10,734 nt of DNA from the UHGV virus genome UHGV-1689382; one strand, 5' to 3'. A program made the position numbers and the translations under genes. This DNA is from a virus. Below, one piece after another: positions 205 through 950 of the stretch (the first letter of the stretch is position 1; each line of letters opens with the position of its first letter). The notes beneath the pieces are model-generated. The model made no database searches. It had not been told where the DNA came from and was given only the letters and a program-made list of their open reading frames with translations.

Positions 205-363
205 TTATTCGCATCGCATGACAACATCAAATTTTTCGAGATTACTTTGTCGCAACAATCCTTCTTCGACGCGGTCAGCTTTTCTATAATTATCAAATTC
301 GAAATGTTTAATTACTTCTTTTGTTTCTCGCTCTATAACTTCAACAATGTATTTCTTATTCAT
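205..363 (-). CDS. Small hypothetical protein (52 aa, MNKKYIVEVIERETKEVIKHFEFDNYRKADRVEEGLLRQSNLEKFDVVMRCE)
   Basis: Hand translation of the minus strand. Its ATG (363..361) overlaps the TGA stop (365..363) of the upstream 98-aa ORF in an ATGA arrangement, suggesting translational coupling. AT-rich and below the ORF-track size cutoff; no recognisable homology. Confidence 0.35.
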   Translation of the reverse strand: MNKKYIVEVIERETKEVIKHFEFDNYRKADRVEEGLLRQSNLEKFDVVMRCE

Positions 364-659
364 CATTCTTCCCCAAGAGCTTTTCTGATTGCTGCAAGAC
401 CTTTATTAACAGCTCCATACCATTCTGGATATGTTGTCTTTGTTCTATTTTTGGTTTGCTTAAGTAATAACTGAAGTGCTTCGAGAAGGTCAGGTGCTGC
501 CGCTATTAGATTGGCATCTTCAATGCATTGAACTTCCTCACAGATTGCAATATACGAACGCCAGCCTGCGCCATTTTCAAGTGAGTCTGCCTGGATGATT
601 TTAATCTCATCGCCATCCATCATTATTTCCCACTTACCTTCAGTACCTTTAAATTCCAT
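363..659 (-). CDS. Hypothetical PL-operon protein (98 aa)
   Basis: ORF-track frame with ATG at 659..657 preceded by SD AGAGG (revcomp of 664..668). Same strand and operon as N. Product not recognised; contains an IAAAPDLLEAL motif. Confidence 0.6.
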   Translation of the reverse strand: MEFKGTEGKWEIMMDGDEIKIIQADSLENGAGWRSYIAICEEVQCIEDANLIAAAPDLLEALQLLLKQTKNRTKTTYPEWYGAVNKGLAAIRKALGEE

Positions 660-698
660 GTTAGCCTCTGTTGTTTATGCCAAAAATAAAGGCCACCA

Positions 699-950
699 TC
701 AGGCAGCCTTGTTGTAAATGTTGCAGGTATCAAGTAAGTAATTAGATGGAGCGCCATAAATTATGAATTCATCGTTTGTCGGGTCCATCTCCATCTCTTG
801 GCCTATTGCCATTCTTGCGTCAGTGTCATCAGAGGCGAAGCATAAAACAGCCCACGCACCCATTGTTTTAAAAAGAACTGCAATTGGCTGTGGTTTTACT
901 GAATTTGCGTTAGCGCGAAAATCACAAATCGCACTTTCATGAAATTCCAT
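699..950 (-). CDS. Hypothetical PL-operon protein (83 aa)
   Basis: ORF-track frame with ATG at 950..948 preceded by SD GAGGTGA, 8 nt downstream of the N stop. Product not recognised. Confidence 0.55.
   Translation of the reverse strand: MEFHESAICDFRANANSVKPQPIAVLFKTMGAWAVLCFASDDTDARMAIGQEMEMDPTNDEFIIYGAPSNYLLDTCNIYNKAA

Follow-up and report, generated by a model that had tools for sequence, protein, structure and literature searches.

The window, a 10,734-nucleotide stretch of the virus genome UHGV-1689382, corresponds to the early region of a temperate, lambda-like E. coli phage or prophage. Its plus strand carries the genes collected in Table 1, including a helicase gene that is named replicative DNA helicase in RefSeq relatives, and its minus strand carries a LexA-type repressor gene, a 158-aa ORF in the position of rex and then the PL operon. 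This exact mosaic occurs in none of the complete E. coli genomes, the best match covering 78% of it. The 158-aa ORF (1596..2072, minus strand; phrog_2651, a family of unknown function) is located between the repressor gene and PL, the place of rexAB in lambda. Translated from its first ATG, it shares 76 nt with the end of the repressor gene; translation from an internal start would yield an N-terminus that resembles a signal peptide. The product of this ORF may be a lysogen-expressed exclusion or envelope protein. In the nin region, an HNH_3/NUMOD4 homing-endonuclease-like gene (6206..6808, plus strand) is inserted between NinB and NinX; HNH_3 genes also adjoin PF27050 genes, the family discussed below for the 98-aa ORF, in the Salmonella prophages L004-L008. 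Downstream of Q, about 1.2 kb (9530..10734) has no long plus-strand ORF, and ARAGORN found no tRNA in it.

Within the PL operon, the order on the minus strand is N, an 83-aa ORF, a 98-aa ORF, a 52- or 53-aa ORF, two terminator-like hairpins and the start of cIII. An earlier note on this DNA had placed ORFs of 83, 98 and 52 aa after N in the PL operon, the first two with good Shine-Dalgarno sequences and the third coupled, and we found all of this confirmed. The 83-aa gene is preceded by GAGGTGA, an AGAGG site sits 5 nt ahead of the ATG of the 98-aa gene, and the third ORF begins with ATGATG, which shares bases with the TGA of the 98-aa gene, the overlap with the first ATG reading ATGA; the 52-aa start is favoured over the 53-aa start by the PHROG profile and by the annotation of phage mEp043. 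The boxB hairpin upstream of N has the sequence GCCCTGAAGAAGGGC, which we take to be that of lambda nutL boxB. N itself is of lambda type, and comparison with lambda showed that its final four codons (AYYD) are unlike those of lambda N. The common MEF start of the 83- and 98-aa proteins is a coincidence of 9 nt (ATGGAATTT), the rest of the two proteins being unrelated.

Table 1. Features of the window, with the PL operon listed from cIII towards nutL.
Feature	Position	Strand	Evidence or remark
Start of cIII (MMHFQLA...), rest outside the window	1..22	minus	sequence; cIII annotated there in relatives HK106 and Dewey
Second terminator-like hairpin	54..73	minus	z-score -5.4
Terminator-like hairpin 3' of the 52-aa gene	94..111	minus	hairpin scan and folding
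52-aa or 53-aa ORF	205..363 or 205..366	minus	phrog_6949
98-aa ORF, MEFKGT...	363..659	minus	phrog_1273 and, very likely, Pfam PF27050 (P22 orf78 family)
Putative intrinsic terminator, tL1 equivalent	680..710	minus	9-bp stem 710..702/697..689, then U-tract
83-aa ORF, MEFHES...	699..950	minus	phrog_2471; acidic
Shine-Dalgarno sequence GAGGTGA of the 83-aa gene	954..960	minus	overlaps the N stop codon (959..961); 8 nt before the 83-aa ATG
Antiterminator N, lambda type, 110 aa	959..1291	minus	Pfam N36, 3.3e-25; phrog_271
boxB hairpin of nutL	1402..1416	minus	sequence; opposite-strand hairpin in scan; fold -9.4 kcal/mol; upstream of N
LexA-type repressor	1997..2629	minus	
cro, cII, O-type replication protein, helicase gene, NinB, HNH/NUMOD4 endonuclease, NinX, Rha/KilAC antirepressor-like protein, YbcO, RusA, Q		plus	

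ORF length is weak evidence here, the window containing dozens of spurious ORFs of at least 50 aa. All three ORFs, however, gave full-length PHROG matches that cover the whole profile (phrog_2471, 2.9e-61; phrog_1273, 1.5e-32; phrog_6949, 3.4e-40; each family annotated 'unknown function'), and the reading frame is kept in homologues down to 46-75% identity. dN/dS was 0.07-0.16 for the 83-aa gene and 0.11-0.42 for the 98-aa gene; for the 52-aa gene no value could be obtained because all seven copies in the phage collection are identical, and the case for it as a gene is made by its PHROG match and its coupled position. Judged from these comparisons, all three ORFs are genuine genes with homologues and, where testable (the 83- and 98-aa genes), low dN/dS. 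Sequenced phages already contain near-identical copies of them, their families are catalogued, and their novelty is low. The remark of the earlier note that it recognised no family has thereby been superseded.

The 83-aa gene ends inside a hairpin, the 5' arm of which consists of the last three codons of the gene (K-A-A), while the stop codon TGA (701..699) lies in the loop. The stem of 9 bp, five of them G-C, is followed by UAUUUUU and folds at -14.1 kcal/mol. The record of phage mEp234 carries a 'terminator' annotation at the end of the 83-aa gene, and the overlap between terminator and ORF end is kept in three diverged lineages (the window, L014 3740..3775 and L016 3738..3775), the stems of which differ with compensatory changes (GGCUGCC/GGUGGCC, GCCGC/GCGGC and AAGGCCG/CGGCCUU). 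Two diverged lineages have other stop codons, TAA between GCCGC and GCGGC followed by U6 in one and TAG between AAGGCCG and CGGCCUU followed by CUUUU in the other. The hallmarks of an intrinsic terminator (a GC-rich stem-loop, a U-tract and conservation in relatives) are thus all present at 680..710, and the comparison gives good support for a functional terminator of the tL1 type. Like lambda tL1, the element is a GC-rich hairpin with a U-tract and the first terminator downstream of N; unlike tL1, it overlaps the end of a coding gene and holds the stop codon in its loop, and lambda has no such gene after N. Since the 83-aa gene ends inside this conserved terminator, its product is probably made with N, before antitermination, and N and the 83-aa protein would probably be the only proteins made from PL up to that point.

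The same geometry suggests that a ribosome which reaches the stop of the 83-aa gene could cover the hairpin and so allow a fraction of transcription to continue, and we therefore considered whether the ORF might be mainly cis-acting, with ribosomes at its stop setting the N-independent passage of tL1 and the protein being secondary. The stop codon in the loop and the use of the last three codons as the 5' arm, both kept in three lineages with differing stems, would fit such a role, but purifying selection acts at the amino-acid level over the whole length of the protein, as judged from the dN/dS values above and from 50 of 83 columns being invariant among homologues down to 70% identity, and a leader ORF would not need this. 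Because the protein sequence is under selection, terminator masking cannot be the sole role of the gene, and we regard a mainly cis-acting ORF as very unlikely, although a cis role and a protein role are not mutually exclusive.

Same-length homologues of the 83-aa protein were found at 84, 75 and 70% identity. An exhaustive HMMER profile search of 1.84e9 representatives returned only its own 50% cluster and fragments of the family, and phrog_2471 is therefore an orphan family. Three giant repeat proteins (P0152, P0155 and P0156) that reached E-values down to 3e-50 against the 83-aa profile did so by summing 44, 12 and 3 weak repeat matches and were rejected as score-inflated false positives, and a weak profile match to the PB1 domain of MEKK2 (E=0.1) was not significant. 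The protein has a pI of 4.2, its AF2 model is unreliable (pLDDT 52), and TMHMM reports no transmembrane segment for it (Silas et al., Supplementary File 3, bioRxiv 10.1101/2023.04.06.535777). Its gene is present in 403 of 5426 complete E. coli genomes (about 7%), every match having at least 95% DNA identity, and in 56 phage records, among them VT2-Sakai (where it is orf20), other Stx2a phages, HK106, HK633 and mEp234.

The 83-aa protein has been included in a published functional screen. Silas et al. took accessory genes located in variable regions of enterobacterial phages and assayed 200 in ECOR strains, both by themselves and together with 8 phages (45 phage-host combinations; bioRxiv 10.1101/2023.04.06.535777). 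Library entry UDP0060 is AFM76313.1 of mEp234, that is, the 83-aa protein with S41A (Supplementary File 3, bioRxiv 10.1101/2023.04.06.535777). UDP0060 is not among the genes listed there with a conditional-lethal or phage-sensitising phenotype (orf7, 24, 48, 63, 92, 98, 116, 126, 143, 145, 148 and 184; bioRxiv 10.1101/2023.04.06.535777), nor is it mentioned in the follow-up paper (PMC12373910). The 200-gene library was without the 98- and 52-aa proteins. The screen used few hosts and lambda vir as its only temperate lambdoid phage, and because of this narrow sampling of hosts and of temperate lambdoid phages we treat its outcome for UDP0060 as weak negative evidence. The earlier note had named the lack of a phenotype on any defence-carrying host as a result that would speak against an anti-defence role; for the 83-aa protein the ECOR screen goes part of the way, having covered few defence systems.

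The 83-aa gene has a nearly constant position. It almost always lies directly 3' of N, with a gap of 8 nt in the window, L016 and L018 and of 16 nt in L014, and it is translationally coupled to N. The N proteins upstream of it are nevertheless dissimilar (lambda-type, 933W-type and types of 90 and 95 aa), those of L016-L018 having one C-terminal end in common. The junction between the end of N and the start of the 83-aa gene, ...TGAGGTGA..ATG, is also found in L016, L018 and VT2-Sakai and is degraded in APC_JM3.2. Between the resident N of VT2-Sakai and its 83-aa gene lie 58 nt (L003 2943..3000) that include the 3'-end remnant of another N (...KLGSKPLI-TGA), which still runs directly into the GAGGTGA site. 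In APC_JM3.2 (L002 4026..4087, minus strand), the same remnant follows a 75-aa gene with no evident N ORF upstream, the remnant reading throughout ...KLGSKPLI, then TGA or TAG and GGTGA. It resembles a scar from recombination at the left edge of a mobile unit, and from the remnants in these two phages, together with the near-fixed position, we infer that the N tail, the ribosome-binding site, the 83-aa gene and the terminator move between phages as one unit. This conserved unit, with a stop codon in the loop of its terminator, is to us the most interesting detail of the locus.

Linkage of this kind raises the alternative that the genes modulate the developmental decision of the phage or host physiology, the 83-aa protein perhaps acting as partner to N or to the antitermination complex, or stabilising either. 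Among the operon-mates, cIII is an inhibitor of FtsH and Kil an inhibitor of division. The location directly behind N, the ribosome-binding site that overlaps the N stop codon and the transfer with an N fragment into VT2-Sakai and APC_JM3.2 would all suit a function linked to N, and DNA identity of at least 95% across 403 genomes suits a conserved target better than one engaged in an arms race. The ECOR screen also gave no anti-defence phenotype for the 83-aa protein. A partner specific to N would, however, not be expected behind such dissimilar N types, in APC_JM3.2 the gene follows the 75-aa gene rather than an evident N ORF, and it must be dispensable for N function because lambda lacks it. 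We therefore consider a modulator of this kind unlikely.

Turning to the 98-aa protein, its close homologues (89-97% identical) carry a precomputed match to PF27050 (Phage_P22_Y8K6), and so do nearly all listed full-length homologues at 55-97% identity; our direct scan gave no Pfam match because the PF27050 model is newer than the Pfam copy scanned. Comparison by tblastn with ORF18 of ST104, annotated as 'similar to P22 orf78', gave 46.5% identity over residues 2-98 (E=1e-7), that is, homology over the full length to this type member. The 98-aa protein is thus very likely a member of PF27050, a family annotated without function, and its membership says nothing on mechanism. Single-sequence searches returned at least 169 homologues and profile searches at least 3288. 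Small members are also found in virulent phages of about 145 kb that infect Klebsiella, Cronobacter and Proteus. The label 'nucleotide pyrophosphohydrolase' on a Klebsiella phage homologue proved to be an annotation artefact, the CDS of the record being out of frame. In this phage (OY979426, L020, 2333..3004), the label marks a pseudogene and covers a small PF27050-like ORF (MAKDTWEVFQDDDEIKV...LIAAAPELLDAV...) in another frame, and the family thus extends to virulent Mydovirus phages.

Three anchors in the 98-aa protein, KGTxGxW, LIAAAPDLLEAL and AAIxKALGEE, are conserved at the protein level despite many synonymous changes in the codon-level comparison, and the two segments that they frame are wholly different between phages. 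With the P22/ST104 version, the 98-aa protein has only these three motifs and the N-to-cIII location in common, whereas the two versions diverge in the N-terminal module and in the middle part of the C-terminal half. One E. coli variant has a C-terminal half that is DNA-identical to that of the window and an unrelated N-terminal half, which places a recombination breakpoint inside the central anchor, the LIAAAPDLLEAL motif. In the AF2 model of the 98-aa protein (pLDDT 72.5), residues 45-94 form a helical hairpin that is predicted with confidence, and the beta module at the N-terminus is ill-defined. Foldseek comparison of this model with the PDB gave nothing at E<=0.001, only generic helical hairpins, and comparison with BFVD gave only uncharacterised phage proteins.

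All copies of the 52-aa protein that we found, in mEp043, mEp213 and APC_JM3.2, are identical, and in mEp213 its gene follows a different PF27050 variant. Other PF27050 genes have an overlapping stop and start with downstream genes for unrelated proteins of 69-85 aa that carry the signature LRDYFAAKA...ADAMLKAR. These different coupled partners indicate that the two-gene layout after PF27050 genes is recurrent and that the second gene is not fixed, the 52-aa protein being, by this comparison, a rare and translationally coupled partner of the 98-aa protein. The full 98-52 pair is present in 64 E. coli genomes and parts of it in 179, these partial matches reflecting the mosaic pattern described for the 98-aa protein, and the complete 83-98-52 arrangement occurs in 29 complete E. 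coli genomes. Gp44 of mEp043, the gene of which adjoins the 98-52 pair, was considered as a Gad1 candidate and ruled out by BLASTP against the Gad1-annotated protein of L010. Phage mEp213 (L021) has two different N-type antiterminator genes in one PL operon, at 944..1276 and 2429..2701, with a 62-aa gene, a PF27050 gene and the 52-aa gene between them.

We searched all three proteins for functional relatives. Neither the 83- nor the 98-aa protein matched any Pfam family at E<=1, those of Ral (PF11058), Ea10/DUF2528 (PF10800), Ocr and ArdA included, while DUF2528 was readily detected in the ea10 genes of VT2-Sakai and APC_JM3.2, which served as a control. Scans of the three proteins against Pfam, NCBIfam and PADLOC gave chance-level matches only and no enzyme family, with no defence family of PADLOC-DB at E<=1, and PDB sequence searches with single sequences and profiles gave nothing below E=0.05. 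A literature search on these proteins, PF27050 and orf78 found nothing relevant except the Silas library entry. Structure prediction, which the earlier note had suggested as a check, likewise led to no functional match.

The earlier note had drawn on the position of ral and ea10 in lambda, and this comparison is correct: the lambda interval between N and cIII holds sieB (antisense), orf28, ral and ea10. In lambdoid phages, this interval is an acknowledged hotspot of counter-defence genes, most of its genes being functionally dark. It is hypervariable, relatives of the window carrying Ral, a Gad1-family gene, P22 gene 17 and sieB there, and the neighbouring genes that we scanned against PHROGs each matched a family of unknown function or nothing. 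In Salmonella and E. coli prophages, PF27050 genes always lie between N and cIII, where their neighbours are Ral, an HNH_3 endonuclease, DUF7446, gene 17 and sieB and, in one case, a Gad1-family gene. In ST104 (L019), ORF19 (1817..2461), which adjoins the PF27050 gene and ral, encodes a pentapeptide-repeat protein (Pfam 4e-39); DNA mimicry is known for some proteins with this fold, which makes ORF19 a plausible candidate for anti-restriction.

Such neighbours could also point to competition between phages, the window proteins either excluding other phages or helping to escape exclusion by a resident prophage, as annotated for P22 gene 17. The PF27050 member of ST104, ORF18, lies between ral and gene 17 with sieB nearby, and the swapping of cassettes in the 98-aa protein would suit a variable, phage-encoded target. 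PL is, however, repressed in lysogens, and the three genes could therefore not protect a lysogen unless they had an internal promoter; the sole promoter-like match, at 787..760, is no better than expected from shuffled sequence. With no PADLOC matches to set beside it, we find a role in phage-versus-phage competition quite unlikely.

Known counter-defence proteins offer partial parallels. Lambda Ral is likewise a small protein of the N-to-cIII interval in the PL operon, and in the Salmonella prophage L007 it lies between N and the PF27050 gene, but it has no sequence similarity to the window proteins, which lack a Ral match in Pfam at E<=1, and it gave a counter-defence phenotype in the Silas screen, where UDP0060 is not listed with one. 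The acidic DNA mimics Ocr of T7 and ArdA resemble the window proteins in being small, acidic (pI 4.2 and 4.7 for the 83- and 98-aa proteins) and, by inferred timing, very early. They differ in that no sequence or fold match was found, the 83-aa model being too poor to judge and the 98-aa model, a beta module with a helical hairpin, having no PDB match at E<=0.001. Ocr, moreover, is far more strongly charged than the net -7 calculated here.

Taken together, the locus holds three non-essential accessory genes in the mosaic N-to-cIII interval of the early-left operon of a lambda-like temperate phage. Our likeliest guess, from position only, is that they serve counter-defence or host takeover in a broad sense, and we would put its probability at roughly 0.45. 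Of the proposal in the earlier note that the proteins are candidate early anti-defence or host-modulation factors, the label is reasonable by position; the functional side has gained nothing, since no functional match emerged and UDP0060 is without a reported phenotype. The argument from position is itself weak, the interval also holding regulators (cIII, with Kil further left) and exclusion genes (sieB and gene 17). Production of the 83-aa protein would accompany that of N within the first minutes after infection or induction, ahead of N-dependent readthrough, and the 98- and 52-aa genes, lying beyond the terminator, would be expressed once N acts. The proteins are small (6-11 kDa) and have no enzyme motif, and the two larger ones are acidic; they would probably act stoichiometrically, by binding and thereby neutralising or re-tuning a protein of the host or of a resident prophage or rival phage during early lytic growth. 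In the 98-aa protein, the three anchors may form a fixed scaffold that presents the two swapped segments as variable target-binding surfaces.

A bolder version of this reading would make the 83-aa protein a hitherto unrecognised immediate-early factor, co-translated with N and directed against an immune system outside the ECOR screen or at the N/Nus machinery, with readthrough of tL1 tied to its own translation, and PF27050 a large family of modular inhibitors in which two swappable cassettes retarget the protein to different host proteins; we regard this version as improbable.

Current understanding is unchanged by our analysis, in that these are catalogued hypothetical proteins and the sole functional test on record was negative. 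The 83-aa gene is, however, carried by Stx2a prophages of O157:H7, and apart from N its product is probably the only protein made before N acts, so that a defined function for it would extend the basic lambda-type early programme in clinically important phages.
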